DNA of 62,732 bases, counting the filler, from Nitrospirota bacterium (lineage in GTDB: Bacteria; JACPQY01), in assembly GCA_016180645.1 (NCBI GenBank). It is 3 parts of 3 records of this genome, joined end to end, with 100 filler letters (N's around TTAATTAATTAA, not from the genome) between each part and the next. Parts side by side here need not be neighbours in the genome. Positions count along the whole stretch, not along the records: positions 1 to 31,543 come from JACPAV010000004.1; 2 more parts are not named here. One strand, written 5' to 3'. Below the pieces are notes generated by a model. That model worked only from the letters and a program-made list of their open reading frames with translations. It made no database searches and was not told where the DNA came from. Numbering within the stretch: the first letter of the stretch is position 1; the number at the start of each line of letters is the position of its first letter. A program made the position numbers and the translations under genes. Shown here in pieces: positions 22,451-62,732 of the stretch.

Positions 22451-22556
22451 GCGAGTCTTTTAGCCCAGACCTTCAATCGGGTAAAGCCAACCGCGAGGAG
22501 AATCCACCGTGTAACAATTGACCGAACTCACGCCCTCAATACTGGGAGCAAACATA

Positions 22557-22724
22557 ATGACGTTTGAAAACGGCTTGGTCCTTGCAGGATTCATGGTCGG
22601 ATGGATCGTACTCCAGACGTGGGTCCTCCCGCGGCTGGGTGTGCCGACTTGAGCGCGTCCCGACGCGTGCCGGCCGGCGCGCAAGGCAGATCCGGCACCG
22701 GACAAGCCGGAGGAAGGGAGTTGA
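22557..22724 (+). CDS. Candidate small membrane selenoprotein (UGA 22650-22652 as Sec)
   Basis: GGAG RBS; MTFENGLVLAGFMVGWIVLQTWVLPRLGVPT-UGA-ARPDAC...EEGS; SECIS-like hairpin 22665-22682; extended frame stops 1 nt before the next ATG. Confidence 0.6.
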
Positions 22725-22725
22725 G

Positions 22726-23118
22726 ATGGCCACGTTTGGAATGAGAAAGGAATTGAATTCGACGTATGACGCCGCGCTGTCCAGTGTGCCGGATGCGCTC
22801 AAGAGCGAGGGGTTCGGCATCCTGACGGAAATCGACGTGAAAGACACGCTGAAGAAGAAATTGAACGTCGATTTTCGCCGTTACAAGATCCTGGGCGCCT
22901 GCAATCCACCTTTTGCCCACAAGGCTTTGCAAGCGGAGTTGGAGATCGGGCTCCTGATGCCGTGCAATGTGATTATCTACGAGGGAGATTCCGGGAAGGC
23001 CGTGGTCGCGGCGGTTGATCCGGTCCTGACGATGGCGGCCCAGGGGAACGCACGGGTCAAGGAGATTGCCGGAGAGGTGCGGGAGAAGCTGACGAGAGTC
23101 TTGGAAAGGCTGTGCTGA
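22726..23118 (+). CDS. DUF302 family protein
   Basis: EGFGILTEIDV..YKILGACNP..IGLLMPCNV; start MATFG after GGGAG. Confidence 0.9.
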   Translation: MATFGMRKELNSTYDAALSSVPDALKSEGFGILTEIDVKDTLKKKLNVDFRRYKILGACNPPFAHKALQAELEIGLLMPCNVIIYEGDSGKAVVAAVDPVLTMAAQGNARVKEIAGEVREKLTRVLERLC

Positions 23119-23129
23119 GGAGATCGTCG

Positions 23130-23801
23130 ATGGGAATGATTTCAGAGAAAGACGGCCAGGCCATCCGGGACCACTTCAACGGAAACCTGTCGGCGCCGGT
23201 CAAGATCGAATACTTCACCCGGCCGGACAGCCGGATCTTCGTGCCCGGCCGCGAGGAATGCGCGACCTGCAAGGAAACGGGCGAACTCTTGGGCGAGGTT
23301 GCCGCCCTGTCGGATCAGCTCACGCTTGACGTTCACGACATCACGCGCGACGCGGCCCGTGCCGATGAGCTTGGAGTCAAACGGGTTCCGGCCTTCGTGC
23401 TCTCAGGCGCGGCGAAGGGCCGAGTTCGGTACTTCGGAATCCCATCGGGCTATGAATTCTCCGCGCTGATCGAAGATCTGGTTGACGTATCCAAGGGGGA
23501 AGCCGACCTGAGCCAGAAGACGCTCGATGCCCTGGGAACGCTGGATAAGGACCTCCACATTCAGGTTTTCGCCACGCCGACCTGACCCCACTGCCCCGGT
23601 GCGGCCAGGCTGGCCCACAAATTGGCCATCGCGAGCGAGCGCGTGACGGCGGACGTCATCGAGGCCAACGAATTTCCGGATTTGGTTCAGAAATACCGCG
23701 TCTCCGGCGTCCCCAAGATCATCGTCAACGACACCGTCGAATTCGTCGGCGCCCAGCCGGAATCCCGATTCGTCTCCGAAGTCCTCCGCGCTGTCGAATA
23801 G
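23130..23801 (+). CDS. Protein-disulfide oxidoreductase / AhpF-N-like selenoprotein (CATC + UPHC)
   Basis: Two thioredoxin folds; GIPSGYEF; VFATPT-UGA-PHC continues in frame to VSGVPKI..FVGAQPE; SECIS-like hairpin 23599-23618. Confidence 0.9.
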
Positions 23802-46302: not shown

Positions 46303-49300
46303 CGTCAGGACGACCGTGAACGTGGCCGTGCCGCCCGCTTCGGTGGTGTTGCCGCTGATCGCGCTGACCGTGTAGCCGGACACGTCGTTGTCGTTGTTCG
46401 TCACCGCCACGTTGGGTGAGGGGGTTAGTCCGTTGTAGTTCGCGTCCGCGCTCGTCGAACCCGAGAAAACAATCGAGTAAGCAATATTGCCGTCCTGAAC
46501 GGCATCGTTCTGCCCGGTGACGGTGACGGTCTGAGGGGTGCTCCAATTGAGATTCGTGAACGTGAGGGAGGCCGGGCCGACCGTGCCCTCGGTCGTGTCG
46601 TTCGACGTGTAGTTGACGGTGACATTCGCCGTCGGCTGGCTGTTGAGCATCACGGTAAAGGTTCCCGTGCCGCCCGCTTCGGTGGTGTTTCCGCTGATCG
46701 CGCTAACTGTGTGGCCGGGCGTGTCGTTGTCGGTGTTCGTTACAGCCACATCCGCCGGGTCAAGACCGTTGTAGCTCGAATCGGTGCTCGTGGCGGCCGC
46801 GGTGGTGATCGTGTAGGCCATGTTTCCGTCGGCCAGCGCGTCGTCCACGCCGGTCACTGTCACCGTCTGCGGCGTGTTCCAATCCAGGCTGGTGAAGGTG
46901 AGGGAGGCGGGAGAGACTGTTCCCTCGGTTGCGTCCGAACTTGAAATCCCCACCGATGTGGCGGCCGTCGGCTGTGTGGTCAGAACGACGGCAAAAGTCG
47001 CCGTTCCGCCCGCCTCGGTAGTGTTTCCGCTGATCGCGCCGACGGTGATCCCTGCCGCTGCGATGGAAAAGTTCGCGTTCGACTCGTCGCTGGAAGTGTT
47101 CCCGTAGGAGTCCGTCGCGATCAACTTCACACGCACCGTGCCGGAGGTGATTGCGGGCACCGTCCACGTGTAGGTGCTGTCGTTGGCTTCCCCGGTGGCG
47201 ATCAGATTCGGATAGGAAGCGCCGCCGTCCGTGGAGTAGTAGAGCGAAATGGGGCCGGCGCCCAGATTCGGGTCGGTGATATCGGCGTTGGACCACGCGA
47301 TAGCTCGTGTGGATCCCTGCGACCATGGTTCGGCCCCGTTCGGGGTAGTCAGCGTACCGGCGAGAATCGACGGGGCAGCGACATCATTCGTAAGAGCCGT
47401 GGGGGAGGATTGATTTCCGACCGCGTCCGTTGCCGTGATGTATAGGGAAGGGTTGGTATTGTCGCCGATGGCCGTGGCCCCAAAGGAGCCATCGGCCAAT
47501 GATGTGACGGTCGTGATGAGTGAGGTGAGGAGGCCATCGGAGTAGATCTTGACGGCGGAGTTGGCTTCGACGGCTCCGGCTGCTCCGCTGACGGTATCAT
47601 TCGTGCCTGGCGTATTCTGGGTGATCGTGAGCTGGGCAGGCGCCGGCGCGGAAGGCGGTGTGGCGTCAACCGTCCATGTGAATGAGGCGGGTGATGCATC
47701 CGCGTTGCCCGCGGCGTCTTTCGCCCGGACGGAGAAAGTGTGCGAGGCGTCGGAGATCCCCGAGTACGCCTTTGGAGATGTGCAGGAGGCATATGCGGAG
47801 CCGTCCAGTTTGCACTCGAAGGTGGCCGTGTTTTCCGGACTCGTAAAGGTGAACGAAGCGGAGGTCTGGTTGGTGGGCGAGGAAGGTTGACCGCTGATGG
47901 ACGTTTCCGGGGCCGCGGTATCGAGCGTGACGGTTGCCGTCAGGCTTGAGGTGGCGTTCCCCAGGGAATCGCGGAACCGGACGTAGACGGTGCGGACACC
48001 ATCGGCGCCAGGCGCCAGGCTCCAGGTCTTGGAGGTGGAAAAGGGCTCGTAGGCTGAAAACGTCGCATCGTCGTTCGAAAACGCCATTTCCGCGGCGTCC
48101 GTGGCGGCGAGCGTCAAGGTGACTCCCAGGGTGCCGGTCACCGTCGCACCGCCGCTGATCGCCACCGTACCGCCCGCAGGTGCGCTGGTCTTCACGGTCC
48201 ATGCGTACGAGGCGGGCGTCGGATCGACGTTGCCGGCGGCGTCCGTGGATCGGACCGCGAACGCGTGTGAACCATCGGTTAGTGGCCCAGCGATCAAGTG
48301 GGAAGACGAGCAGGAGACGAACGCGGCGGAGTCGAGGGAACACTGGAACGCTGCAGACGGATCCGAGGAAGCGAAAGCAAACGCCGCGATTGTCTGATTG
48401 GTGAGCGCGGATGGTGTCGTCGAGATCGTCGTCTCCGGGGGCGCGGTGTCGACCGTCCATGTGTATGTGGCGGGCGTGAGATCCTTGTTGCCGGCCTTGT
48501 CGGTGGCGGAGACGGAGAGGGAGTTCGACCCTTCGACGGGGCTCAGGGCGAACGGGGAAGCGCAGGTCGCGGCAGGAGCGCCATTCAGAGAACAGGTAAA
48601 GGTACACCCCTCACCCCCGCCCTCTCCCGCAAGGGGAGAGGGGGAATTTTGGCAAGTGAAGCCAAAGGTGGCGGCGGAGGAATTGGTCAGTGCGGGCGGC
48701 GTGGACGCCGCCCCTACGAAGAGCGTGTCCGGCGGCGCGGTATCCACCGTCCACGCGAACGTCGCCGGCGTCTGATCCTTATTGCCGGCCTTATCGACAG
48801 CCGACACGGAAAACTTTTGGGATCCATCCTTCGACAAGCTCAGGACGAGCGGGGAAGCGCATGCCGCCGCGGCTTCCGCGTTGAGTTGGCACATGAAAGA
48901 TGAATCGGGTTCGGTACTCGCGAACGTGAACGTGGCGGAGGTCTGGTTCGTCAGGAGGGCGGGCAAGCCCGCCCCTACCAGCGTCGTATCCGGCGGAATC
49001 GAGTCCTTGAGGGCCAGCTTGAACTTGACTTCGAGGGGGGTTGGGTCGGAATTGCCCAGCACATCGGAGGCCTTCACAAGAAGGGTGTGGTCTCCGTCTT
49101 CGGATGGCGGCATGTAGGCCGCCGGACACGAGGCGTAGTCGCCTCCATCAAGGGCGCAACGATAGGTGCAGGCAACCTTGGAGCAGTCGAACACGAAAAC
49201 GTCAGACGCACCGGTCACCGCGCAGAGCGTTCCGGCTCCGCCGGCGCAGGGCTTCGTCTTGAGGATCGTGTCCGGCGAGGTCAGATCCACTTCCTTCAGT

Positions 49301-50319
49301 TTGAGCTTGAAATCCTGGGGAGGCTTCACGCCCGCCACTTCAAAATCCTGCCTCACTTTCGTTTCGAGCTGAACGCTCAGGGTCTCGAATGCCGCCTTCA
49401 CCTGCTCGGTGGTAGGCTTGCTATCCGAGTTGGCTGCACCGGCGATGGCTTGTTGAAGGATGGACTGGGCGGTAGCCGCTGATCCGCCGCTCGAAGGGGA
49501 CGAAGCGGCGACGGCCGAGGCAATTTCCGTTAGAGTGGAAATACCGTCCCCGTCAAGATCCGGGAGTTCCACCTGGTTCACGTCCAGAGGGGTATCCTTG
49601 ATTTCGAGTGTCAGGACAGGTCCCACTCCCGCCCCGGAAGGACCGGCCTCGGACTTCTGCACTTTCACTTCGATCGTCGTGGTGACCTTCACGTATTCGA
49701 CTTCCTGGTGCCCGCGGGAACGGACGCGCGTGCTGATTTGATTCTGGCCATCCTGGGCGGATTTCTTGGGAAGATTGAACGAAATCTCAAACACAAAGGC
49801 CGTCTCGCCCTCACCCGCAGATTCGTCGCGTTTGGGCGCCCCTCGAACACCTCCGCGGACGCCGCCGCGGACACCGCCCTGCTCGGCGCCTCGGATTCCC
49901 CCGCGGACGCCACCCTGCTCCGCTCCGCGCACGCCCCCCCGAACGCCGCCGCGGATACCTTCCGCCACCATCTCGCCGTTCATGTACACGTCGGCCACCA
50001 CTTCATCCCCCGCCTTCCCCTGAATGCCGTTCAGCATGGCGGCGATTTCGGGTGAGAGCGGGATATTCATGTCCATGGGGACGACATCTTTCTTGGCCTG
50101 TGGGAGTTCGAGGTTGCGAACGCAGGAACCGAGAGTGGTGAGGAGCAAGCCGTGAGCCGTAAGCAGCAGGGCAAGAATCGTGAACCGTGAGGAGCAGAGC
50201 GAGAGGCGAGAGGAGGGAGGCGAGAGGCGAGAGAAGAGGGAACAGCCCCGGAGCAGACGACGGGGTGAAGAAAAAAGCACGCGCGAGACTTGCCGCAAAC
50301 TCAGCCCTGCAAACGACAT
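46303..50319 (-). CDS. Large surface lipoprotein: GG[VI]RG domain, DxDxDG loop, Cys-containing Ig-like repeats, Calx-beta-like repeats (3' end lost)
   Basis: Lipobox LGSC; repeats D..PP.T..F.C.LDG..C..G.H.F.V.A.D.AGN.D; TTEAGGTATF..W.TPQTVTVTG repeats. Confidence 0.85.
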
Positions 50320-50382
50320 GCGACGTTTCTAGCAACCACGCAACGTGATGTCAAGTTGTTTCTCAATTTTTTCCAGTAGAAA

Positions 50383-50398
50383 TGTGATGTACGTCACA
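50383..50398. promoter_or_regulatory. CRP/FNR-family binding site
   Basis: TGTGA-TGTACG-TCACA preceded by AAA in an AT-rich divergent intergenic region. Confidence 0.65.
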
Positions 50399-50578
50399 AT
50401 CGTGATTATTCTCGTATTTGCAGGGATTTGGGCGGTCAACATTCGGTGGGCGGAGTCAGTACGAGCATTCGAAGTTGAAGTTGGACTTGAATATTTGTCC
50501 CCCACCAGGGAATCGATCCTGTGTCTTGGCCCAAGGGCTGGGTTTGCCGAAGGCGCCCGGCTGCGCTAAAAGTCGGCT

Positions 50579-51949
50579 GTGCCAGCCGTGAAAAGTTCCA
50601 TCCCCAGCGTTGTCATCGTGGGAGCCGGGTTCGGAGGGCTCTGGGCCAGTGGTCGTCTGAAAAGTGCTGCACTGCAGGTGACGATTTTGGACCGCCAGAA
50701 CTACCACACGTTCTTCCCCCTCCTCTACCAGGTGGCGGCAGCCGAAATTGAGCCGGAGGAAATCGCTTACCCCGTGCGCAGCATCCGCCAGAAAACTTCG
50801 CACGCCCGTTTTTTCGTGGCGGAGGTGCGCCGGATCGATCTTCAGGCGAGACGGATCCTGACCGACGGCCCCGAGCTTCCCTACGACTACCTGATTCTCG
50901 CGCCGGGGAGCGTGCCCCATTTTTTCGGAGTGCCGGGCGCGGCGGATTTCGCCTTCCCCCTGCGAACGATGGATGACGGCATCGAGCTGCGGAATCACAT
51001 CCTGAGCTGCTTCGAGCGCGCCGTCCCGATTGGTGGCATCCAGCCAGTCGCGGGGCGGCTGGGCCATCCTAGCGCCGTTCGTGAACCGGATCCCGCCGAG
51101 AGCCGATCTCTGCTTACGTTTGCCATTGTGGGCGGAGGCCCCACGGGTGTCGAATTCGCAGGGGCCCTCGCGGAACTCATTCACGGACCGTTCCGCACAG
51201 ATTACCCCTCCATCCAGGATGGTGATCCGCACGTCCTTCTCCTCGAGGCGGCGAACGGCCTCCTTCCGGGACAGCCGGCGAACTTGGCCCGATACGCAGC
51301 CGACCGGCTTCGCTCCCGGGGAGTGGCCGTGCGGCTCGGGGCCGTCGTCAGCAAAATTGACGAGAGGGGTGTGGGTCTCAAGGACGGTAGCTTTGTTCCG
51401 AGCCGAACGGTGGTGTGGACCGCCGGGGTATCGGGTCCACCCGCCTTGGAGCAATGGGGGCTTCCGATGGCGAAGGGCGGGCGGGTCGCCGTTCGGCCAA
51501 CCCTCCAGGTCCCGGACCATCCGGAAGTGTACGTGGTGGGCGACTGCGCCCACGTGGAGCACGAAGGCCGTCCCCTTCCCGGAGTTGCACCGGTGGCTAT
51601 GCAGGAAGGCGAGTGGGCTGCAGAGAATATCCGGAGGCAGATCGCCGGAGAGGATCCTGTCCCATTCATGTATAGGGATCTCGGCACGATGGCGGTGATC
51701 GGCCGCAACGCGGCTGTGGCTCGCATCGGAAAGCGTTCATTCACCGGCTTTACCGCCTGGGTCATGTGGCTCGTGGTCCACTTGATGAGGCTGATCGGAT
51801 TTCGGAACCGTCTCGTTGTCTTGTCGAGCTGGGCATGGGATTATTTCTTCTTTGACCGAGTTGTTCGCTTGATCCTTCCGTCAACGCACCGAAGGGACTC
51901 CGCGCGAGCGTTCAAACCGGGATCACCCGGAGGGGCGCAAGAAACGTAG
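50579..51949 (+). CDS. ndh: Type II NADH dehydrogenase
   Basis: GAGFGG, PLLYQVA, VGGGPTGVEFAG, VVGD, PGVAPVAMQEG. Confidence 0.93.
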   Translation: MPAVKSSIPSVVIVGAGFGGLWASGRLKSAALQVTILDRQNYHTFFPLLYQVAAAEIEPEEIAYPVRSIRQKTSHARFFVAEVRRIDLQARRILTDGPELPYDYLILAPGSVPHFFGVPGAADFAFPLRTMDDGIELRNHILSCFERAVPIGGIQPVAGRLGHPSAVREPDPAESRSLLTFAIVGGGPTGVEFAGALAELIHGPFRTDYPSIQDGDPHVLLLEAANGLLPGQPANLARYAADRLRSRGVAVRLGAVVSKIDERGVGLKDGSFVPSRTVVWTAGVSGPPALEQWGLPMAKGGRVAVRPTLQVPDHPEVYVVGDCAHVEHEGRPLPGVAPVAMQEGEWAAENIRRQIAGEDPVPFMYRDLGTMAVIGRNAAVARIGKRSFTGFTAWVMWLVVHLMRLIGFRNRLVVLSSWAWDYFFFDRVVRLILPSTHRRDSARAFKPGSPGGAQET

Positions 51950-52012
51950 GGGGCCGTGCCACGATTTTGCATCGCGGGCCCGTCGTGGTACATTTGGACG
52001 CGGGAGGTCACC

Positions 52013-53080
52013 ATGAGATTCCATGCAGCCGTGTCCCTGCTCGCTTTCGTCATCCTCACAGCCGCGTGCGCGAGCGATTCCACACCGCCGAAACAGAAGG
52101 AATTGAGCCTCGATGTGCCGGTCCTCTCTCAAACCGCAGTGGCCTTGGAAGGCATGGGCGAGCTGGAGGCCACACTCGCCGTAGATGGACAGAACCTGTC
52201 GGGAGTTCGCGGCGGGGTTCGAGGCGGAGTTCGTGGAGGCGTGAGGGGAGGGGTCCGAGGCATCGGGACGCGTGACGCGGGGCGCGAGACGCAGGCAAGA
52301 GGGGGACCGGCGTCCGGTGCCTTGCGATCAGCGCAATCTTCGGAGTTCCCGGTTTACAATGTGACCTACACGTTCGAATCCATTCCCGAGAGTCTGGCGA
52401 GCGGCTCGCATCGTCTGCATCCGATCTTCGTTCGGGCCACCGATCCGGTGGGAGAGGAGCGCGGGCTCTGTTGGTTTGAGTTTGACAAGGAGCTGTCGTC
52501 CGACGGGGCGCTCGTGGATCCCCTGATCGATCCGAACAGCGAGCTGTTCGGGATCCCCGACGACGACCAGGACGGTGTGTCCAACCTGGTCGAGCTGGCG
52601 ATCGGGAGCGATCCGACGAATGCATCGGCCCGCCCCTCCGCCGATGAGATCAGGGCGAAAGGATTCGACGCGACGCCGCCGGAGACCACGATCACAAGCT
52701 GCACGGCAGCCTCTGGGGGTGGTCGGACTGTGGAGTTTTCATGCTCGGAGCTGTGCGCCGATGCGACCAAAGAAGGCGACCTGATCGGCTCATCGTCCCT
52801 GGCCGCGATGGCCCGGGACGACGCAAGGAACGCAGCTCAGGATGAGCTGCAGCATACGTCGCAACCGACGCTCGCCTGTGCGGTCACCGCCCAGATCGCC
52901 CAGTGCGGCTTCCGATGCAAAGTGGACGGCCCGTCAGGGGAAGGGAGAGTGGAGGTTTGCCGTAGCGGCTTCGTCGCAAAATCTTCGGGGGCCGGGAAAT
53001 ACACTTTCAGCGTGCGGGCTCTCGACGGCTTTGGGAATGCCGACACGACTCCGGCCACATGTGAGTGGAACGAACCATAA
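52013..53080 (+). CDS. Lipoprotein with (GGVR)n repeat, DxDxDG loop and one Ig-like repeat
   Basis: GGAGG RBS; lipobox TAAC; PDDDQDGVSNLVE; DATPPETTI..FSVRALDGFGNADTTPA. Confidence 0.85.
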   Translation: MRFHAAVSLLAFVILTAACASDSTPPKQKELSLDVPVLSQTAVALEGMGELEATLAVDGQNLSGVRGGVRGGVRGGVRGGVRGIGTRDAGRETQARGGPASGALRSAQSSEFPVYNVTYTFESIPESLASGSHRLHPIFVRATDPVGEERGLCWFEFDKELSSDGALVDPLIDPNSELFGIPDDDQDGVSNLVELAIGSDPTNASARPSADEIRAKGFDATPPETTITSCTAASGGGRTVEFSCSELCADATKEGDLIGSSSLAAMARDDARNAAQDELQHTSQPTLACAVTAQIAQCGFRCKVDGPSGEGRVEVCRSGFVAKSSGAGKYTFSVRALDGFGNADTTPATCEWNEP

Positions 53081-53273
53081 TCCTCTCGCATCTTGGGGCT
53101 GAATGCCCCCATCTCCGGGCAAAAAAGTCCGAATTCGCGCCCTCCAAGGCCCCATCACACCCCTGAAAAGTGATTTGGCACACATTTGCTAGGAGGAAGG
53201 CTAAGTACATGAACGCATACCGTACAAGAACCAATGGGAGGGTTCTTTGCCCTCCTTCAGAAAGGGGTGAGTC

Positions 53274-55751
53274 ATGAAATACATCCGTTCTCTTGGAACA
53301 ATCGTTTTCGCCGGCTCGATCCTCGCGTGCGAAGTGAGCGGGACCGGGACCGGAACCACAGTATCGAAGGAACCGAGCGAGAATGAACAGACGGCTCAAG
53401 CCGTCGCCTCCGTTGCGGATACCACCCAGACTCTGAACGAAACGGTGGAGACGGTTCAGACCGTCACCGAACTGACCTCCACGGTGGAGAGCTTGAGCGA
53501 GACCGGCTCAACACTCCAATCGGCCTCCTCGGCCGGATCGGCGACCTCAACGACCTCCACCCTTGGCGGAATCCGCGGCGCTCCGGCGCGTGCCGATGCC
53601 GCGGCCACCGAAACGCCCGATTTCGGCAAGTGTGATGCGACCCCCACCGACGCCGCACCACTCCCGTGCCACTGCATCTACAAAACCCCCGAGAAATTCG
53701 GGCTGGACCAGGATGCCAAGTGCGCGGAACACGTCCCGGGCGCCGCCAAGGCCGTCGTGGCCACCGTGCGCATCAAGACTACCGACGAGGCCGACATCTA
53801 CAAAATCACGATCAAGGCCGTTGTACCCGCCAAGGCCGACCTGCCGGCGGACGTCAAGAAGCATTGCGTCGTGGCGGGGACGGAGATGACCTGCTCGGCG
53901 GATACCGTTGTCGTGAAACGTTGCAAGGACGACGGAGTCACCTGCTTCTTTGTGCCCGCCCCGGCGATTCCCGAGGGCAGTGTGGTGTTCATCAACCGTC
54001 GATTCGAGCTTCCGGATGATTACAAGGCCCCGGAGGATTTCAAGGATCAGACCGCGGTCACCACATGGCTCAAGGCCATCCTTGAAGGCTGGAACACGGC
54101 GAAGAATGACGACGAGCGCCGCGCCTTCATCAAGCGCTTCCTGATCGTGGACAACGGCTGGGTCACCGAGATCAAGAGAGTTCAGTGCGAACCGGGAAAT
54201 GAGAAACAGAAACCCGGCGAGCCGTGGTGCCCGGATTTCCGCCCGCCCGCGGAAGGGAAGGACGGCGCCCAAGCGCCGCATCCGGTAAAAGAGAGCGGAA
54301 TGCGGTTCATCTCGCGGCAAGTGCCCCCGCCGGTCCTCCCCGGCGAGACGCCCTCCGCAGAGCCGGCCAATCTTGGCCACTACGAAGTGGATTTCCGGAT
54401 GATCGATTTGAAATTCAGAATGCCGGGCGAGCAGCAGCCCCGCAAGACGCAGGCGTTTCGTGTTGCGCTGGAGAAGCCCGGCGAGGCATGCACACCGGTC
54501 GACCTCAAAGGCCAGCCTCTCTCCGGAGCGCCCAGCGGACGGCTGATCACCGCCACGCACGCGGCCATCGAGGCGCACGGCGGATACGAGAACGGCGGTC
54601 GAAAGGCGTGCCGTGCCGTGGAGAAAGTAAAACTCGAATCCGGCAAGGTCGTCACGCCGACGAGTTGGGTGAGCCAGGAGTTCGCGCGACTCCAGATTCT
54701 GCCGGTCCCGCCGCCCGACAAGGCCCCGGCGCGATATCCCGTAACGCGCGAGGAAAAAGGGAAGCACTACCTCGTGGTCGATCCGCCCGAGAAGGTGCAA
54801 AAAGAGCGCGAGGAGAAGGTCGGGACGGTTGCCGACAAGGATCGGCGGCCCGGCGCGGGTGGAACCACGGCCACGGGAACCGATACGAACCGACTCCGCG
54901 GAGTCGAGGATCGAGCGACGGGTGAAGGGGTCGCCGCGGTTGCCAAGGCCCAATCGGACCGGTGCCCCGGCCACGGCGAGGGAATCACCAACGTCACCAT
55001 CAAGTTCAATGACGGCCGCATCGACGAGAGGGTCCATCGTTACCTGAAAGAAGAGGGCGTCTGCCAGCCCACTCCGCTCGACGAGGATGGAAATCCGATT
55101 CCTGTAGAGGAGGATGAGAAGGGGAATCTCAAGATTAAGATCAAGGACAAGAAAGGTCAGGACTTGGACGTGTCCGTCGAGAATCCCGAATCCCCATCGA
55201 AGACCATCAAGATCAGCGCCGGGTTCGTTTCAGGCTACATCAACCTCCACGAGGCGGACGAAAATGGCGTCATCGGCGAAGGGACACTGAACGTCACCGT
55301 TCCGGGAACGAGCGTCGAGGTCAGCCTAACGATGACCGAGGCCGGATGGCAGCATGTGCAAGGGAAGGCCACGATCAAGAGCGGAAAGAACGGCACGAAG
55401 ACCATGCTTTTCTGGCAGGATCGCACTGAGAGTGGCGCGTTGATCAAGTTCAAGCTGGTTGCGTCGGGCGAAATCACCGTCGCCGAAAGCGCGGAAGCCC
55501 AAGCCGAAGCCGCCTCAGCTGAAGGATCGCTGGACATGACAGTTCCCTCCGATTCGTCCAATGCCTGCGAGGAGGTGGGACAGGGAAGCCTCAACGAAGC
55601 CGGCACGGGGTATTCCCTGACGGTTTACGAAGACACGAGCACCCTGATCAGGATCGGAAACAACACGGTGAATGTTCCTGTCGGCTGCGCGGGCGGAGGA
55701 ACGCCGGCGACGACAACGGCCGACACCGTCTCCGCGGCAACGAAAGGCTAG
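53274..55751 (+). CDS. Cys-rich orphan lipoprotein with GGIRG motif
   Basis: Lipobox ILAC; S/T-rich linker; 825-aa ORF followed by a terminator. Confidence 0.8.
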   Translation: MKYIRSLGTIVFAGSILACEVSGTGTGTTVSKEPSENEQTAQAVASVADTTQTLNETVETVQTVTELTSTVESLSETGSTLQSASSAGSATSTTSTLGGIRGAPARADAAATETPDFGKCDATPTDAAPLPCHCIYKTPEKFGLDQDAKCAEHVPGAAKAVVATVRIKTTDEADIYKITIKAVVPAKADLPADVKKHCVVAGTEMTCSADTVVVKRCKDDGVTCFFVPAPAIPEGSVVFINRRFELPDDYKAPEDFKDQTAVTTWLKAILEGWNTAKNDDERRAFIKRFLIVDNGWVTEIKRVQCEPGNEKQKPGEPWCPDFRPPAEGKDGAQAPHPVKESGMRFISRQVPPPVLPGETPSAEPANLGHYEVDFRMIDLKFRMPGEQQPRKTQAFRVALEKPGEACTPVDLKGQPLSGAPSGRLITATHAAIEAHGGYENGGRKACRAVEKVKLESGKVVTPTSWVSQEFARLQILPVPPPDKAPARYPVTREEKGKHYLVVDPPEKVQKEREEKVGTVADKDRRPGAGGTTATGTDTNRLRGVEDRATGEGVAAVAKAQSDRCPGHGEGITNVTIKFNDGRIDERVHRYLKEEGVCQPTPLDEDGNPIPVEEDEKGNLKIKIKDKKGQDLDVSVENPESPSKTIKISAGFVSGYINLHEADENGVIGEGTLNVTVPGTSVEVSLTMTEAGWQHVQGKATIKSGKNGTKTMLFWQDRTESGALIKFKLVASGEITVAESAEAQAEAASAEGSLDMTVPSDSSNACEEVGQGSLNEAGTGYSLTVYEDTSTLIRIGNNTVNVPVGCAGGGTPATTTADTVSAATKG

Positions 55752-55786
55752 CCGGAAAGCAAGTCAGGTCCTCCTTCTACGATTGC

Positions 55787-55826
55787 GCCCTCCATCCGCT
55801 GATGTGGCGGATGGGGGGCTTTTTTT
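55787..55826 (+). terminator. Intrinsic terminator
   Basis: GCCCTCCATCCGC-loop-GCGGATGGGGGGC followed by T7. Confidence 0.8.
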
Positions 55827-55893
55827 CGGGGGGTTCAGCCGTCAGCGATCAGCCTTCTATCTAGGCTAAGCCTCTATAGCGGACCATAGAGGC

Positions 55894-57066
55894 TTAGCCT
55901 AGATAGGGGATCCCAAAAACATCTTCTCCGAAGACTTCCTTCTCGATCGCCAGGATATCGGGGCGAATCTCGCCCTCGTGAAGCTCGGTATAGTCCCGGT
56001 AGCCCGTGAATTTTTCCGGCTCGAACGCCCGAACGCAACTGTTGAAAAAGAGATTCAGAATGGCGAGGAACTCTTCGCGCGGTCGGAGCAGCGGCATACC
56101 GGAATTCTCGGCCAGCCGGGTGGCCTTCGCCACGAATCGACCGAAGAAGCCGAAGCAGTCCATCCCGACCGCCTCGAACGCGTCCTTGTAGTCCCAAATG
56201 AGTTTGGCGGCGGGCAGAAGGAGAAGCTCCCGGGCGAGCCTGTCGCGCCGACTGTTCGTCACCTCCTCCGGGACGTTCCCAGCCTCGTAGTAGTTCTTCG
56301 GGAACCCCACGTGTCGCGATTCATCGAGGTGAAAGACCGGGAGGATGTGGCGCAGTCCGGGGAAATCGGCAAACTGGGCGAAGAGCGACGTGGCGAAGCT
56401 CTCGAGCACCACGTTCATGCCGTAGAGCTTCAGGTACGGGCGCGCCTGCGCAATTTTTTCGAATGTGATGAAGGCGGAATCGTGGAGGGGCACGCTGTGG
56501 CCCAGCGTCCGGACCATCGCGCGGAGGACGATGAAGTGCTTCGCTTCCTCCATCACCTGCATGGCCATCCCCATCTTGGAGCCGGTGCCGGTGACCACCG
56601 GAAGAAGGGTCGAACTCGTGTAGAGCGCATACGCCTCTCCGTGCGCGATGAGCGACATCAGTTTGCAGACCGCTTCCCGCTGCTCCGGGGAAAAGGCTTC
56701 CTCGAATTCGCGGCGGACGTCCTCCGAAGTGGCGCGTTCCATCAGCTCGTCCGTTTCGCCCTTCTGGGCGTCGGGGTCCACGCCCAGCTTTTCCACCTCG
56801 GTCGCATCGTGAAATCCGAGGTACGGGGCCTGAACCTCCGCCTTCCAGATCTTGCGGAGGGCTTTTTCATAGACTTTGCGGGTGAGCTCTTCCATGTCGC
56901 CCCCTCGAAACGCGTGCGCACGGTCGTCGTAGTCGTTGGCCTGAGTTCTTTCCAGCTTCCGCCTCCAGCGGGGCTCGACCCAATTGTACGCCGCCGCCGC
57001 CAAGGGTCCCCCGTGGCAGAACGCCGCCCAGGTCGCTTTCTGACGCATCGCCGCCATCGTGTTCAT
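55894..57066 (-). CDS. Ferritin-like di-iron protein
   Basis: HGE..EEAKH..E..DESRH carboxylate/His ligand pattern. Confidence 0.85.
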   Translation of the reverse strand: MNTMAAMRQKATWAAFCHGGPLAAAAYNWVEPRWRRKLERTQANDYDDRAHAFRGGDMEELTRKVYEKALRKIWKAEVQAPYLGFHDATEVEKLGVDPDAQKGETDELMERATSEDVRREFEEAFSPEQREAVCKLMSLIAHGEAYALYTSSTLLPVVTGTGSKMGMAMQVMEEAKHFIVLRAMVRTLGHSVPLHDSAFITFEKIAQARPYLKLYGMNVVLESFATSLFAQFADFPGLRHILPVFHLDESRHVGFPKNYYEAGNVPEEVTNSRRDRLARELLLLPAAKLIWDYKDAFEAVGMDCFGFFGRFVAKATRLAENSGMPLLRPREEFLAILNLFFNSCVRAFEPEKFTGYRDYTELHEGEIRPDILAIEKEVFGEDVFGIPYLG

Positions 57067-57698
57067 GGTTTCACCTCCCCTGAGGGATTTCCCCCAAGAA
57101 TCTTCACGAGGACCTTCTTGAAATCTTCAAACGCGCGATCGCCCCGGCCGGGATCGGCCGAGAACAGGGCGTGACCGCAGAAACCGATCAGCGCGGCCAT
57201 GACGATATCTGCAAAGCTCTCTGCGCTCATATCGAGCTGGTTCTGAAGCGGGCCCAAGACCGTTCGAATGCCTCCGACCAGGAGCGCCCGTTGTTCCTCG
57301 ATGGAGTGGACCACCCTGCGCTTCAAAGTTTTCCGTGTCATCGATCGGGCGGCCAAGTCCATGAACACCGGTAGGAGCGGCTGCGCCTTTTTCAGGAGCT
57401 TCCACAATTCGTCGAACGCCCACAGGGCCTGCTGAACCGAGGGACCGAGCTGCGACGTGGCGCCCTCCACGCGATCGGAAATCTTGCGAAAGAGCAGGGA
57501 TTGCACCTCCAGCAGAAGCTGCTCCTTGGATTTGAAATGGTAGTGCAGCAGACCTTTTGAGACGCCGGCTTCGCGCGCGATGTCGTCCATGGACGTGGAC
57601 TGAAACCCGTTTCGATTGAAGCAGGTGAGCGCGGCTTCGAGGATGGCCTGCATCGAAGCGGCCCGGCGCTCCGCGTGGCTTCGACGCGGATGCGCCAT
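57063..57698 (-). CDS. TetR/AcrR-family regulator
   Basis: TSMDDIAREAGVSKGLLHYHFKSKEQL; start uncertain. Confidence 0.93.
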   Translation of the reverse strand: MAHPRRSHAERRAASMQAILEAALTCFNRNGFQSTSMDDIAREAGVSKGLLHYHFKSKEQLLLEVQSLLFRKISDRVEGATSQLGPSVQQALWAFDELWKLLKKAQPLLPVFMDLAARSMTRKTLKRRVVHSIEEQRALLVGGIRTVLGPLQNQLDMSAESFADIVMAALIGFCGHALFSADPGRGDRAFEDFKKVLVKILGGNPSGEVKP

Positions 57699-57860
57699 CG
57701 CCCGCTGCGATCGGCCTCCCGCCCTCCGTGGGAAGATTGGTGTTACGCTTGCTTGCATAGTCATCATACTGGCACTTGCCCCAGGTCGGCTCACCTTCCT
57801 GGCTCGCCCTGATCAGGCAAGTACCGCACCATCCTTGGCTGGCTAGCCAGTCAGTATTAC

Positions 57861-57889
57861 ATCCTACGGAAACCATGTGGACCTGTCAA
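57861..57889 (-). promoter_or_regulatory. Sigma-70 promoter for tetR and the di-iron gene
   Basis: Minus strand TTGACA-N17-TAGGAT. Confidence 0.65.
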
Positions 57890-57959
57890 GTCCCCATTAG
57901 TTTCCCGGCCGGCTCATCGATTTTTTGGGTGGGGACGGGTATGCTCCGCAGCCGGCGGG

Positions 57960-60227
57960 ATGATGACGATGAGGATGAGCACATGGGCGATGAGTCTCTT
58001 GCTTCTCGTGGCGATGGCATCTATCGCTCGAGGCGACGAGAGGACGCCGTTGGCAGGGCGCCTCCTCGAAAAGGGCACCCGCCGTCCTATCGAGGGAGGA
58101 ACAGTGATGGTGCTTGAGACCTCCGAATTTGCTCTCACGGATCGCTCGGGGAACTTCATCCTAGCCACTCCAAACACACTTCCCCTCACATTCAAGATCC
58201 TCGCCCCCGGATACAAACCCTTTGAGGAAAAAATCGATTCTTGGCTGGACGGACGACGGGTGACGGACGACGGACGACGTTTTTTCTACCTCGATCCCGA
58301 AGTCGTCTCCTCTCTCGAAGTGCTCGTGGAGGCCGAGGCCGAGCGGCGGGAAACGGCCCGGAGAGTCATCACCCGGCAGGAGGTGCAGAAAGCGGCCGGA
58401 ACCGGGGGGGACGCCATCAAGGTGGTGCAAGACATGCCGGGGGTGGCCCGCACCCCTTTTTCGGGGGGGGGGTTGATCGTTCGCGGTTCGGCCCTCGAAG
58501 ACACCGGCGTCTACATGGACGGCCACGAGATCCCGCTCCTCTTCCATTTCGGCGGCCTCACGAGTACGTTCAACTCCGATCTCATCCGCGACCTCCGCTT
58601 CTACCCAGGCGTCTACTCCGTGAGGTACGGCCATGAGATGGGCGGCATTGTCGACATCCGGTCGCGCGCCGGGGACGCCACCGGCACACATGGGTACGTG
58701 GACGCCGACTTCTACGATGCGGGCACTCTTTTGGAGGGACCCGTCAAGAATTTCTCGTACACTGCGTCCCTCCGACGGAGCTACGCGGATGCCATCATCA
58801 AAGCGGCCGTCCCGGAGGATGTCGTCCGATTCACCCTCGCTCCCCGCTACTATGATTACGAGGCTTCCGTCGGGGGTCGATTCCTCCCGCGCATGTCCGG
58901 GTCACTCATGGCGTTCGGATCGGACGACAAGATGGCCCTCGTGCTCGAGGAACCGCCGGGTCGAGAAGTGGAGTTTTCGGGTAATTTCAATTCCAACCTG
59001 TATTTCCATCGCCTGCTCGCGAAATGGAGCTGGGATCTCGGGGCGAACCTTCGAAATGAATTCTCGACGGCCGCGGGTCCGGACCGCATCCTCTTCCGAA
59101 TAGCCGAACTCAGCCATCTCAGCATCCGGATCTGGAACACTTCGCTAAGGGATGAGCTCTTCTACCAGCCCACTCCCTGGCTCACGCTCTACCCCGGGAT
59201 CCATTTCGTCTGGGGCAGAGGCAACTACGACGCGAGATTCCCCCGAATCCCGAGGGAGGACGACCCCGAGCATGCCTACGACCCGGTCTCGGTTCGCGAC
59301 GCCGACGGCGTCCTCGCCGGCTCGGCGGTCTCGCCCTACCTAGAAGCCGTGATCCGACCGATCAGTCGGATCAGCCTGACCCCAGGGGTGCGATTGGACC
59401 GCTACACTATCCAAAATCAAACACCGATTTCCCCGCGGATGACCGCGCGATATCAGCTCTTGGAACCGCTCACGTTCAAGGTGGGCGCAGGCCTCGTTCA
59501 CCAGCCCCCCGAACCGCAGGACGTGGCCGAGGGAATTGGCCAGCCGGAGCTGGGCGTCCAGCGCGCGGCCCAGTACACGGGCGGATTCGAGGTCGATCTC
59601 CCCCGAGGATGGAGCGGCGACATCCAGGGATTCTACAAAGACCTGTCGCTCCTCGTGGTCCGAAAGGCCGAATCCGACATTTCCAACTACGATCCTTCCG
59701 ATCTTGAAAACGGCGGCATCGGCCGCATCTACGGAAGCGAAGTGTACCTCTCATGGAAGAACCCCCGCGGATTCGCCTGGTGCAGCTACACGCTCTCACG
59801 GAGCGAACGACGCGACCACCCTGGAGAAGACTATCGATTCTTCAGCTTCGACCAGACTCACATCCTGACCGTGGTGGGCACGCTGAGCTTGACGGCGAAA
59901 TGGGACCTCGGAGCGCGCTTCCGATACTCCACGGGCCGCCCGGAAACCCCGTTCATCGATTCGATCTACGACGCGGATCGCGACCGGTACATCCCGATCC
60001 CCGGGGAACTTTATTCCGTTCGAATCCCCGGGTTTCACCAGCTTGACGTGCGCGTCGACCGGCGCTGGAGATTCAATACGTGGATGCTGACAAGCTATCT
60101 CGACATCCAGAATGTGTACGTGCAGAAGAACCCCGAGGGGTTTTCCTACAACTATGACTACAGCGAACGGCAGGCCGTGACGGGCATCCCCATCTTTCCG
60201 TCTTTCGGCCTTAGAGCGGAGTTCTGA
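57960..60227 (+). CDS. TonB-dependent receptor
   Basis: Signal peptide, plug (MPGVAR..LIVRGS..IPLLFHFGG..YPG), terminal GLRAEF. Confidence 0.92.
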   Translation: MMTMRMSTWAMSLLLLVAMASIARGDERTPLAGRLLEKGTRRPIEGGTVMVLETSEFALTDRSGNFILATPNTLPLTFKILAPGYKPFEEKIDSWLDGRRVTDDGRRFFYLDPEVVSSLEVLVEAEAERRETARRVITRQEVQKAAGTGGDAIKVVQDMPGVARTPFSGGGLIVRGSALEDTGVYMDGHEIPLLFHFGGLTSTFNSDLIRDLRFYPGVYSVRYGHEMGGIVDIRSRAGDATGTHGYVDADFYDAGTLLEGPVKNFSYTASLRRSYADAIIKAAVPEDVVRFTLAPRYYDYEASVGGRFLPRMSGSLMAFGSDDKMALVLEEPPGREVEFSGNFNSNLYFHRLLAKWSWDLGANLRNEFSTAAGPDRILFRIAELSHLSIRIWNTSLRDELFYQPTPWLTLYPGIHFVWGRGNYDARFPRIPREDDPEHAYDPVSVRDADGVLAGSAVSPYLEAVIRPISRISLTPGVRLDRYTIQNQTPISPRMTARYQLLEPLTFKVGAGLVHQPPEPQDVAEGIGQPELGVQRAAQYTGGFEVDLPRGWSGDIQGFYKDLSLLVVRKAESDISNYDPSDLENGGIGRIYGSEVYLSWKNPRGFAWCSYTLSRSERRDHPGEDYRFFSFDQTHILTVVGTLSLTAKWDLGARFRYSTGRPETPFIDSIYDADRDRYIPIPGELYSVRIPGFHQLDVRVDRRWRFNTWMLTSYLDIQNVYVQKNPEGFSYNYDYSERQAVTGIPIFPSFGLRAEF

Positions 60228-60246
60228 TGAACGTGAAGGGTGAAGA

Positions 60247-61164
60247 GTGATGGGTGAAGGAAGAGAAGGCCGGGGCGCCAAGGGTCGGATCCTGCACATC
60301 ACCCTTTACTCATCACTCATCACGGCCGTGCTGAGCACGGCCTGCGGCATCGACCAGGGAGAGCCCACGTTCGTCGACAAGCCGCGCATTCTCGCGATGA
60401 AGGCTGAACCGCCGGAGATCCAACGAGAGGGCGAGTCGCGGCTGAGTGCCTTGGTCGCCTTGCCGGACGATTTCGATCCATCCGCCCCGCCCCCCCTGCT
60501 CCTCTGGGGACTCTGCGAACTGACCGGAACCGTGACCGGGCAGAGCTGTGCCGATCCCGAATCCGCGAAGGTTTTGGGCGCCGGCGGCCCGGAGGAATCG
60601 ATCCCGATTGCGGACCCCACTCCACCCCCTCCGATCCTTTCCGGGGACGGCGAGAAGAATCATCAGGGGATCTCAGCGCCGCCGGAATTTTCCATGCAAC
60701 CCCTGCCCGTTCCGGTGCCTTTCCTCATCGGTCTGTTCGCCAAGGCGGGAGACAGGGAGATGAAGGCTTTCAAGCGGTTCATCGTCAGCGGCTCCACGAA
60801 CCCCAATCGGAATCCCGTGATCACGGACGTGATGATCGACGGCGCACCGCTGGCCGACCTTTCCGCCTTGGAGCCCGAAAGAGAGTACACACTGGAAGTC
60901 CAGGTTCCGGAGGATGCCGCTCAATCCTACGCGGATCTTTCGCCGACCGGGGGGGGGCGGGAGAAGACCGAGGATCTGTTCATCGCCTGGTTCAGCACCG
61001 CCGAGGGGCTCGAAAAGGATCGATCCTTCGGAGTACCGTACGAGAACAAGTGGCGTGCCCCTCGGAAGCCGCCGGAATCGGGAAAAGTGCGATTTTGGGT
61101 CGTCCTTCACGACAGTCGCGAGGGAGTTGACTGGAAGAGCTTCGACCTCACCTTCGCAGAATAA
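60247..61164 (+). CDS. Lipoprotein partner of the TonB receptor
   Basis: Lipobox STAC; PRILAMKAEPPE, NRNP, VVLHDSREGVDW. Confidence 0.8.
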   Translation: MMGEGREGRGAKGRILHITLYSSLITAVLSTACGIDQGEPTFVDKPRILAMKAEPPEIQREGESRLSALVALPDDFDPSAPPPLLLWGLCELTGTVTGQSCADPESAKVLGAGGPEESIPIADPTPPPPILSGDGEKNHQGISAPPEFSMQPLPVPVPFLIGLFAKAGDREMKAFKRFIVSGSTNPNRNPVITDVMIDGAPLADLSALEPEREYTLEVQVPEDAAQSYADLSPTGGGREKTEDLFIAWFSTAEGLEKDRSFGVPYENKWRAPRKPPESGKVRFWVVLHDSREGVDWKSFDLTFAE

Positions 61165-61269
61165 CTTCTCTTAATTACTTATATATCAATGCGAATGGCG
61201 TGGCACTAACCGTTTAGTTGACAACGTTGACGGTTCGTGTCACCATATCAGTCCAAGGAGGACGCGATA

Positions 61270-62544: not shown

Positions 62545-62564
62545 GCACGGGATCAAAAGCAAGC

Positions 62565-62732
62565 TGTTGTAGTTTAGTCAACATGTCCGCTTTACTGTTG
62601 AGTGAAAATGTCCTCCCCCGCGCGTGGCATGGATGAGGGGGGAGCGGGGGGAGAGGGGGTCCGATTGTTGCGGCGCAGAGTTCGGAGGAGCCGATCCTGA
62701 CCCGGTTTTTCCGTTTCGAGTAGAATTCGGTG
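62565..62732. mobile_element. IS terminal inverted repeat and start of element (runs off window)
   Basis: TGTTGTAGTTTAGTCAACATGTCC...GTTGAGTGAAAATGTCCTCC, similar to the end at 536. Confidence 0.75.

Follow-up and report, generated by a model that had tools for sequence, protein, structure and literature searches.

A probable single-pass membrane selenoprotein of 55 residues from a widespread bacterial family

The locus

This report concerns a short gene with an in-frame UGA codon, found in a stretch of 62,732 nucleotides (nt) from a Nitrospirota bacterium (assembly GCA_016180645.1); the whole stretch is referred to as the window. Comparison with homologous sequences makes it very probable that positions 22557 to 22724 on the plus strand form one gene and that this gene encodes a single-pass membrane selenoprotein of 55 residues, a member of a widespread bacterial family.

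A Shine-Dalgarno-like GGGAG can be read from the sequence at 22544..22548, 8 nt upstream of the start codon ATG 22557. Codons 1-31 translate to MTFENGLVLAGFMVGWIVLQTWVLPRLGVPT, with a hydrophobic segment ending in WVLPRLGVPT. Within this part, AlphaFold2 and our full-length family alignment (A2) predict a single transmembrane helix at codons 3-26 (22563..22634), with the motif W-x2-L-Q-x-W-V-L-P. The UGA at 22650..22652 stands directly after an invariant G-V-x-T; homologous loci and the selenocysteine (Sec) machinery of the organism both point to it as the codon for Sec, residue 32. The frame beyond it reads ARPDACRPARKADPAPDKPEEGS, which adds 23 codons, and runs to a terminal TGA (22722..22724) located 1 nt before the ATG (22726) of a DUF302 gene. 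A hairpin, GCGTGCC/GGCC/GGCGCGC, lies at 22665..22682 (7-bp stem, loop GGCC, -12.3 kcal/mol) and is our candidate for a Sec insertion sequence (SECIS). By translation, the TGC at 22668..22670, inside the 5' arm of this stem, encodes Cys38 and gives the motif U-x5-C. All these features are on the plus strand. A sequence-only reading made beforehand had described the ribosome-binding site, the start codon, the membrane segment, the TGA at 22650, the open frame up to the DUF302 start and a hairpin whose loop lies 19 nt past the UGA and begins with G, and we found all of them in the sequence as described.

The codon at the UGA site in homologous genes

We collected relatives of the small gene in three sets. 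The first search was performed with the 31-residue N-terminal part alone, using a profile (A1) of four sequences, and therefore nothing located 3' of the UGA could bias the result. The gene was present in 20 of the 61 genomes related to the first distant match (genome G017). At all 20 loci, the codon following G-V-x-T was TGA.

For the second set, a motif pattern inside the helix was run against one genome per species (185,579 species). The pattern was matched by 163 stretches, of which 134 were confirmed and 80 kept. It was based on alignment A3; the broader alignment A2 had been tried as its base and replaced, having no conserved stretch. The codon at the site was TGA in 79 of the 80 sequences, TGC in one, and TAA or TAG in none. 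At one helix position, the pattern demands Q or V where the Cys forms mostly have N, and because it thereby disfavors Cys forms, the 79:1 proportion of TGA to TGC does not represent the Sec:Cys ratio of the family. According to the record titles, the 80 sequences belong to Desulfobacterota and other 'delta' lineages (23), Acidobacteriota (19), Myxococcota (14), Planctomycetota (7), Spirochaetota (6), SAR324 (2), Armatimonadota (2), KSB1 (1), Bacteroidetes (1), LCP-89 (1), and unclassified bacteria (4). Members of the family thus occur in at least 10 phyla with the same gene layout kept, and cultured strains of Geomonas (G. azotofigens, G. diazotrophica, G. anaerohicana) and Geotalea (Geotalea sp. 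SG265) are among the carriers (loci L070, L088, L101 and L089), which makes the small gene directly testable.

The third set was obtained in an unbiased search of 401 genomes with the full-length profile A2. The gene was found in 46 genomes, corresponding to 43 of 348 genera. TGA lies inside 43 of these 46 matches; the other three break off at profile position 29, short of the site, and in locus L144, the only one of the three that could be read, TGA comes directly next. The 401 genomes were chosen as relatives and are no random sample of bacteria, and therefore the presence of the gene in 46 of the 178 genomes with selA is a figure for this sample only. One additional match, in genome G027 (expectation value (E) 0.005), has TAA inside; it lacks a hydrophobic helix and was dropped as a chance hit.

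The stop codons that terminate the same genes are mixed. Among 97 distinct tails they are TGA in 39, TAA in 39 and TAG in 17, and no stop was reached in two.

A hairpin of the SECIS type follows the UGA

According to the model of bacterial SECIS elements, the loop lies 16-37 nt from the UGA and contains a G. The hairpin of the window has seven perfect pairs, and its loop starts 19 nt past the A of the UGA, an offset of 22 from the U. We searched 99 distinct 66-nt stretches, each beginning at the UGA, for the best perfect hairpin with a loop start 14-32 nt from the U. A stem of at least 6 bp was found in 77 of the 99 sequences, compared to a mean of 10.3 and a maximum of 20 in 50 rounds of shuffling, and the median hairpin energy was -10.2 kcal/mol versus -0.5 in the shuffles. 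The loops are rich in G (GGA in 26 sequences, GGTC in 19, GGC in 6 and GTC in 6). The nearest relatives of the window's gene have the hairpin CGCGCC/GGTC/GGCGCG at the same offset.

We then studied covariation in a MAFFT alignment of 53 sequences of the U-x4-C type, which were picked by a protein criterion and not by their hairpin. The structure of eight pairs shows compensatory changes at 8/8 pairs, on both sides. Doubly changed cells numbered 90 versus 42.3 +/- 5.1 in shuffled alignments, and the covariation score was 0.366 versus 0.156 +/- 0.017; in neither case did any of 500 shuffles reach the observed value. When the structure was slid by 1-3 columns, the score was at most 0.139. The SECIS-type hairpin proposed from the sequence of the window is therefore borne out by its homologues.

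No hairpin of this kind was found at the terminal TGA of the small open reading frame (ORF), nor at the sole locus with TGC at the site (L071). A scan against Rfam gave nothing near threshold for the small gene, and nothing for the SECIS of the neighboring protein disulfide oxidoreductase (PDO) gene either. Haft and Gwadz accepted a 7-bp stem with a G-containing loop as SECIS, as stated in their preprint (10.1101/2022.07.06.499078).

Selenocysteine machinery

The genome of the window (97% complete) encodes selB (369.8 bits), selA (556 bits) and tRNA-Sec (73.3 bits), all above cut-offs, as well as selD (356.9 bits). Because all four are present, we conclude that the organism decodes UGA as selenocysteine. 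The selD gene (G000:C25:71685-72605, locus L114) has its own in-frame TGA in the context CAG-U-AGK, followed by the 7-bp hairpin GTCCAGG/GGA/CCTGGAC at offset 23; SelD of this genome is also a selenoprotein.

Among the 401 genomes, selA was detected in 178. It occurs in all 46 carriers of the small gene versus 132 of 355 non-carriers (one-sided Fisher test 1.5e-18, relatedness ignored). The relatives of G017 were tried for the same comparison; with 57 of 61 positive for selA, that set could not discriminate, and the 401-genome set did. The genome with the TGC locus gave no selA match and the four Sec-form genomes tested alongside were all positive, a comparison that involves one genome of unknown completeness.

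Cysteine homologues and annotated proteins

A profile search of a protein collection at 90% identity gave 471 candidates, 246 of them at E up to 0.01, and 40 proteins were retrieved and read at the Sec site. In 23, the protein ends exactly at G-V-x-T; most of these have 28-30 residues and are called 'hypothetical protein' where named. Another 11 go on with Cys (T-C-M-S-G-A-C and variants), and six with W, as expected if the gene caller read TGA as Trp.

An exhaustive search of 1.84 billion representatives gave 1,329 clusters (50% identity) at E up to 0.001. We read the Sec site in 148 of the best 150 listed, the other two having been retrieved previously. A regular expression assigned Cys to 106 representatives (T-C-MSGAC), W to 20, R to two, and S, G and L to one each, while one protein ends there. 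Reading the 16 sequences missed by the expression by eye added Cys (10), W (3), S (1), G (1) and one unrelated repeat protein. Since the top of such a list favors full-length proteins, these figures attest to a large number of Cys forms but give no measure of their frequency.

The reading frame beyond the UGA

Among the 97 distinct tails, the open frame past the UGA has a median length of 26 codons. The first Cys is located at +5 in 53 tails, at +6 in 20 (the window included) and at +7 in one. In the first set, 19 of 20 loci read U-[ML/A]-x-x-x-C, mostly followed by x-x-E-D-R. In composition, the tails are 15% E, 12% K, 10% D and 6% G, and they are also rich in P, S and T. Part of the residue conservation after the UGA, such as E-D-R and P-R-R-S-A-R, reflects the hairpin as translated into protein.

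The tail encoded in the window aligns codon for codon with the type U-M-S-P-D-A-C-R-V-P, with which it has P-D-A-C-R in common. It also aligns with a type found in Myxococcota and Acidobacteriota, U-A-V-P-S-P-R-R-S-A-R-K, in which CGC (Arg) takes the place of the window's TGC (Cys). The sequence-only reading had proposed a small selenoprotein with a UxxxxxC motif, for which a conserved downstream Cys in homologues would count as support. The TGA at 20/20 and 79/80 loci, the open frame, the hairpin and the presence of selA in all carriers back the selenoprotein itself, and conservation does extend past the UGA, with a Cys at +5 or +6 in 73 of 97 tails. The UxxxxxC motif is true for the window (Cys38) but not for the family, in which U-x4-C is commonest and U-x5-C is one of several arrangements. 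Likewise, the downstream Cys is a feature of most members rather than all.

Gene and operon layout

The small gene is followed on the same strand by two further genes, with gaps of 1 and 11 nt. The first, at 22726..23118, encodes a DUF302 protein of 130 amino acids (PF03625, 9.4e-27) with the Cys motifs GACNP and LPCNV. Its ribosome-binding site, read from the sequence as GGAGGAAGGGAG (22709..22720), lies within the last codons of the small ORF. Together with the distance of 1 nt between the end of the tail and the DUF302 start, this suggests translational coupling. The second gene (23130..23801) encodes a PDO of 223 residues, a member of a known selenoprotein family. Read with Sec at its in-frame TGA (23583..23585, motif TPT-U-PHC), it scores 256.8 bits against TIGR02187 PDO_seleno_TRX (cut-off 185). 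The hairpin GGCCA/GGC/TGGCC follows at 23603..23615, an offset of 25. Gene callers would split this PDO gene into two ORFs, 23112-23585 and 23622-23801. The DUF302 and PDO genes are the sole matches to their families in the genome of the window. Upstream of the small gene, a GDPD-family gene is encoded on the opposite strand.

A scan for promoters and terminators around the small gene gave no sites, and therefore the operon boundaries rest on spacing alone. The sequencing runs that contain the locus comprise four DNA runs from one groundwater study and no RNA run. The small gene is single-copy in its genome: one match has E 3.7e-34, and the nine others have E 0.137 or worse. It lies on contig C17; positions 46303-62732 of the window correspond to contig C22:1-16430.

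Architecture and gene neighborhood

An AlphaFold2 model based on alignment A2 has a helix at residues 3-26, with predicted local distance difference test values of 79-90 over residues 1-20 and below 61 in the tail. W16, L19, P25, G28 and T31 are invariant in alignment A2. The conserved motif W-x2-L-Q-x-W-x-L-P-[RK]-x-G-V-x-T closes the helix, and the Sec codon follows about six residues beyond it.

Neighboring genes were identified by tblastn (E up to 1e-4) in flanks of 1.5-2.5 kb at 101 loci, which include one duplicate locus pair, and at 26 loci from the unbiased sample, 127 in all. A gene for a thioredoxin, PDO, thioredoxin reductase-like protein, DUF302 protein or OsmC is present in the flanks of 36/101 and 12/26 loci (48/127), with a background of 0.5-0.8% of the window's genome lying within equal distance of such a gene. 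This neighborhood is a tendency, not a rule. Thioredoxin is the commonest neighbor (28/101 and 8/26, 36/127 loci), and 27 of the 28 thioredoxin genes in the 101-locus set are on the same strand as the small gene. The thioredoxin gene lies directly downstream in LCP-89-type operons (small gene, thioredoxin, extracytoplasmic function (ECF) sigma factor) and in a second downstream arrangement of small gene, thioredoxin, OsmC and PDO-like gene; in Myxococcota and Acidobacteriota it lies directly upstream. The occurrence of the same pair of genes in two arrangements speaks for a functional link rather than inherited synteny. The adjacent thioredoxins have WCxPC and no signal peptide, and their thioredoxin fold begins at the start of the protein, which indicates that they are cytoplasmic.

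DUF302 genes adjoin the small gene at 11/127 loci. Nine neighboring DUF302 proteins (from loci including L039, L041, L046, L052, L056, L067, L078 and L098) were aligned; they are 47-63% identical to the one in the window, and the Cys motifs GACNP and LPCNV are invariant. These motifs suggest thiol chemistry for DUF302, a family without known function, for which the small protein would be a concrete candidate partner.

ECF sigma factors are encoded beside the small gene at 19/101 loci. Further neighbors include thioredoxin reductase-like flavoproteins, a truncated AhpD/CMD-like ORF, a hybrid-cluster protein with desulfoferrodoxin, and CsbD. The LCP-89-type order of small selenoprotein, thioredoxin and ECF sigma factor is conserved at L012-L015, L018-L021, L024 and L076. 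Either the peptide itself or its redox state might act on the regulon of the adjacent ECF sigma factor.

A proposed function

From the architecture and the neighbors only, we infer that the small protein may act as a thioredoxin-recycled selenol/thiol center on a membrane-near oxidant, a proposal that we consider reasonable but somewhat short of probable. In the synthesis of the protein, SelB with Sec-tRNA(Sec) would bind the hairpin at 22665-22682 and insert Sec32. Translation would end 1 nt before the DUF302 start and so couple the two genes, with the Sec-containing PDO next in the operon. The helix at residues 3-26 would anchor the protein with its N-terminus outside and its C-terminus inside (N-out, C-in). 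This orientation is suggested because basic residues follow the helix, the N-terminus is acidic and the thioredoxins are cytoplasmic. Sec32 would then be held at the cytoplasmic membrane surface, on a disordered tail with acidic and basic residues, where it could serve as the redox center. There, a peroxide, a lipid hydroperoxide or another oxidant near the membrane might oxidize the selenol, which may then form a selenenylsulfide with Cys38 or a partner protein and be trapped in that state. The thioredoxin-fold proteins encoded alongside, PDO here and thioredoxin in many relatives, would take over the recycling, and DUF302 may be a further thiol partner. Such a selenoprotein would tie the thioredoxin system to the membrane surface by means of a peptide that can be synthesized chemically.

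Evidence to the contrary and alternative explanations

Several observations weigh against a SECIS-dependent selenoprotein with a redox pair at the membrane. The GGCC loop of the window occurs only once among the 99 sequences. Moreover, the minimum-free-energy fold of the 66 nt past the UGA picks another pairing and is not beyond shuffles (z 0.17). The same holds for the PDO gene next to it, whose SECIS is of a known type and whose single-sequence fold is likewise no better than shuffles (z 0.62). Single-sequence energy z-scores, which fail to separate even the PDO SECIS from shuffles in this GC-rich DNA, were therefore left unused, and the evidence for the hairpin comes from comparison. As for the redox pair, 14 of the 97 tails have a distal Cys only, in 10 of these within the last three residues, and nine have no Cys at all. 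The closest relatives of the window's gene have Arg (CGC) at the +6 codon, so that a resolving Cys at this spot is not fixed in the family. The carriers are kin, and the Fisher value for the co-occurrence with selA therefore overstates the support; it means no more than that 43 genera yielded no exception. A thioredoxin-type neighbor within 1.5-2.5 kb is missing at 79/127 loci, and the background to which this neighborhood was compared comes from one genome only. Finally, the N-out, C-in topology is suggested by charge distribution and cytoplasmic partners only.

Four other explanations of the locus were considered. The protein could be a real selenoprotein that is no peroxide or disulfide reductase; at the membrane, its selenol would instead bind or carry a soft metal (Hg, Cu, As) or a chalcogen (persulfide or polysulfide, selenium). 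We regard this as possible, if rather unlikely. It would fit the recurrent DUF302 neighbor, as DUF302 genes have been found inside sox sulfur-oxidation clusters according to the part of PMC5037610 available to us, and other neighbors such as a YgaP-like membrane domain with a metallo-beta-lactamase, DUF3179 and an ArsC/LMWP-type domain. Several Sec/Cys motifs in small membrane proteins also bind metals, as far as the Haft preprint (10.1101/2022.07.06.499078) could be consulted. On the other hand, the commonest neighbor is thioredoxin, the genes for OsmC, the AhpD/CMD-like protein, desulfoferrodoxin and ECF sigma factors point to oxidative stress, and no metal transporter or mer, ars or cop operon is adjacent in the loci scanned.

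A very improbable explanation is that the small ORF serves mainly as a selenium-sensing leader, in which Sec-dependent read-through brings ribosomes to DUF302 and tunes the downstream redox genes including the Sec-containing PDO. The terminal TGA 1 nt from the DUF302 start, the DUF302 ribosome-binding site within the codons of the tail and the selenoprotein gene downstream would all suit such a leader. However, the N-terminal helix is kept as protein across phyla, with W, L, P, G and T invariant, the downstream gene varies widely by lineage or the partner is upstream instead, and the Cys forms, which are unable to sense Sec, share the architecture.

We give equally little credence to the idea that the family is real and the window's copy is decaying or non-functional. 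It draws on the unique GGCC loop and on the identity of only 20-38% to 20 members of alignment A2. But the copy has kept its start codon, ribosome-binding site, helix motif, UGA, open tail and a strong 7-bp hairpin intact, the neighboring Sec gene for PDO in the same genome uses a GGC loop, and the nearest relative is 63% identical over residues 3-45 with its hairpin at the same position.

Hardly credible, in our view, is a gene that ends at UGA 22650 as a 31-residue membrane peptide, the hairpin acting in the RNA for some other purpose (for example, stabilizing the transcript or controlling the next gene): gene callers do make this call, as the 23/40 database proteins ending at GVxT illustrate, Sec insertion is usually inefficient, so that some truncated peptide is probably also made, and part of the conservation past the UGA (EDR, PRRSAR) is imposed by the hairpin sequence, yet an ordinary stop would vary in the manner of the real stops of these genes, whereas the site is TGA in 99/100 sequences, 73/97 tails have the in-frame Cys at +5 or +6, Cys-codon homologues run through the site (the sole one with DNA without the hairpin), selA accompanies the gene in 46/46 carriers, and the hairpin has no U tract, with no terminator-like site in the scan.

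Comparison with known selenoproteins

In several respects, the small selenoprotein gene resembles the bacterial genes with a SECIS inside the ORF, such as those of the fdhF type. In these, too, an in-frame UGA precedes, by no more than about 20 nt, a stem-loop whose apical loop is rich in G (GGUC, GGA). Like them, the small family has Cys homologues and depends on selA, selB, selC and selD. Unlike them, the small protein matches none of the catalogued families searched.

The eukaryotic selenoproteins SELENOK and SELENOS of the endoplasmic reticulum have an N-terminal single transmembrane helix and an unstructured tail that contains Sec, as does the small protein in its AlphaFold2 model. The portion of PMC10650576 available to us describes them as single-pass proteins of type III topology with an unstructured, cytosolic, Sec-bearing tail. 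Judging from the titles of its references 44 and 45, SELENOS is a reductase and peroxidase in vitro, activities that would match the function suggested here for the small protein. There is no sequence relationship, and the small protein has no Pfam match. In SELENOK and SELENOS, Sec is the second or third residue from the end, whereas the small protein has it as residue 32 of 55, 6 residues past the helix and 24 residues from the C-terminus. Their tail is rich in Gly, that of the small family in E, K, D, P, S and T, and the SECIS of the small gene is bacterial and located inside the ORF. SELENOK and SELENOS may therefore be seen as the closest analogues by design, which is an analogy and not membership.

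A further-reaching view, which we put forward tentatively, is that the small protein might be one of the commonest bacterial selenoproteins and the functional counterpart of SELENOK and SELENOS: a minimal membrane-tethered selenol that, together with thioredoxin or PDO and with DUF302, would reduce peroxides, lipid hydroperoxides or persulfides at the membrane surface, often under the control of ECF sigma factors. If so, it would have been overlooked because it is tiny and cut by the UGA. The protein could also serve as a bacterial model of how single-pass membrane selenoproteins work chemically.

The PDO of TIGR02187 (PDO_seleno_TRX, a glutaredoxin-like homologue of the AhpF N-terminus) shares with the small protein the operon, the PT-U context and a hairpin with a GG loop at a similar distance. 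It differs in being a soluble protein of 223 residues, in its UxxC motif and in having a double thioredoxin fold where the small protein has none at all. MerT-type Sec/Cys metal carriers and small Cys-rich membrane peptides likewise combine a short anchor with a Cys/Sec pair near the membrane, and selenoproteins of the MerT family are mentioned in the Haft preprint (10.1101/2022.07.06.499078), which was available in part. In contrast to them, the small family has no hidden Markov model match and only one helix, with no mer genes nearby in the loci scanned.

Status of the family in current catalogues

The sequence-only reading had suspected a family that is possibly undescribed, and our searches agree as far as they reach. 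Pfam and NCBIfam (release 20, June 2026) were searched with 21 Sec-form and 14 Cys-form members at E up to 0.1-1 and gave no relevant match. Two hits were rejected: DUF5337 (PF17272), with 19.2 bits versus a cut-off of 27 in 1/21 members, as noise from helix composition, and the PP0621 family, with E 0.074 for one Cys form, as noise. A search of the PDB by sequence found no relative, only transmembrane-helix noise, and the ESM Atlas returned one unnamed cluster of 123 members at 0.87, which was uninformative.

Table 1 of a review of May 2026 (PMC13188914), the part to which our comparison with that review refers, lists 119 prokaryotic selenoprotein families and subfamilies with model accessions, and it contains no small single-helix family with T-U-x4/5-C. 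The NCBIfam models of those families in the table that were considered as possible matches gave no match. To the extent that the two sources were available, the preprint of Haft and Gwadz (10.1101/2022.07.06.499078) and the deep-Sep paper (PMC12013277) describe other families. Full-text literature searches on bacterial selenoproteins, small membrane proteins and DUF302 found no such protein, supplementary tables being outside their scope. Because such tables could list the family among unnamed candidates, we call it uncatalogued, which does not mean that it is proven to be unpublished.

Small ORFs and in-frame UGAs are both blind spots of annotation, and the small family falls into both. If our interpretation is right, a family of 1,329 clusters that spans Desulfobacterota, Acidobacteriota, Myxococcota, Planctomycetota, Spirochaetota and others joins the prokaryotic selenoproteome.

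Divergent members of the family

Some members depart from the common pattern. A subtype in Myxococcota and Acidobacteriota has no near Cys; often one of its three final residues is a Cys, and the stop that follows is in many cases a second TGA (L034, L036, L037, L041, L043, L044, L053, L054, L055, L080, L144).

A few database homologues have S, R, G or L at the Sec site (P0005, P0146, P0149, P0159, P0203, P0247, P0258, P0266). Codons for these residues (TCA, CGA, GGA, TTA) are one base from TGA, and the cases may be substitutions, sequencing errors or artefacts of the gene caller.

A divergent copy is found in the low-GC, spirochaete-like genome G017 (L011/L009, minus strand, 1620-1447). Its tail reads U-L-S-D-S-V-S-G-E-P-N-S-C, with the Cys at +12, and its hairpin, GGTTTC/GGG/GGAACC, is weaker. 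This copy is a lone gene, flanked by a terminator on one side and by a convergent ABC-2 transporter gene on the other.

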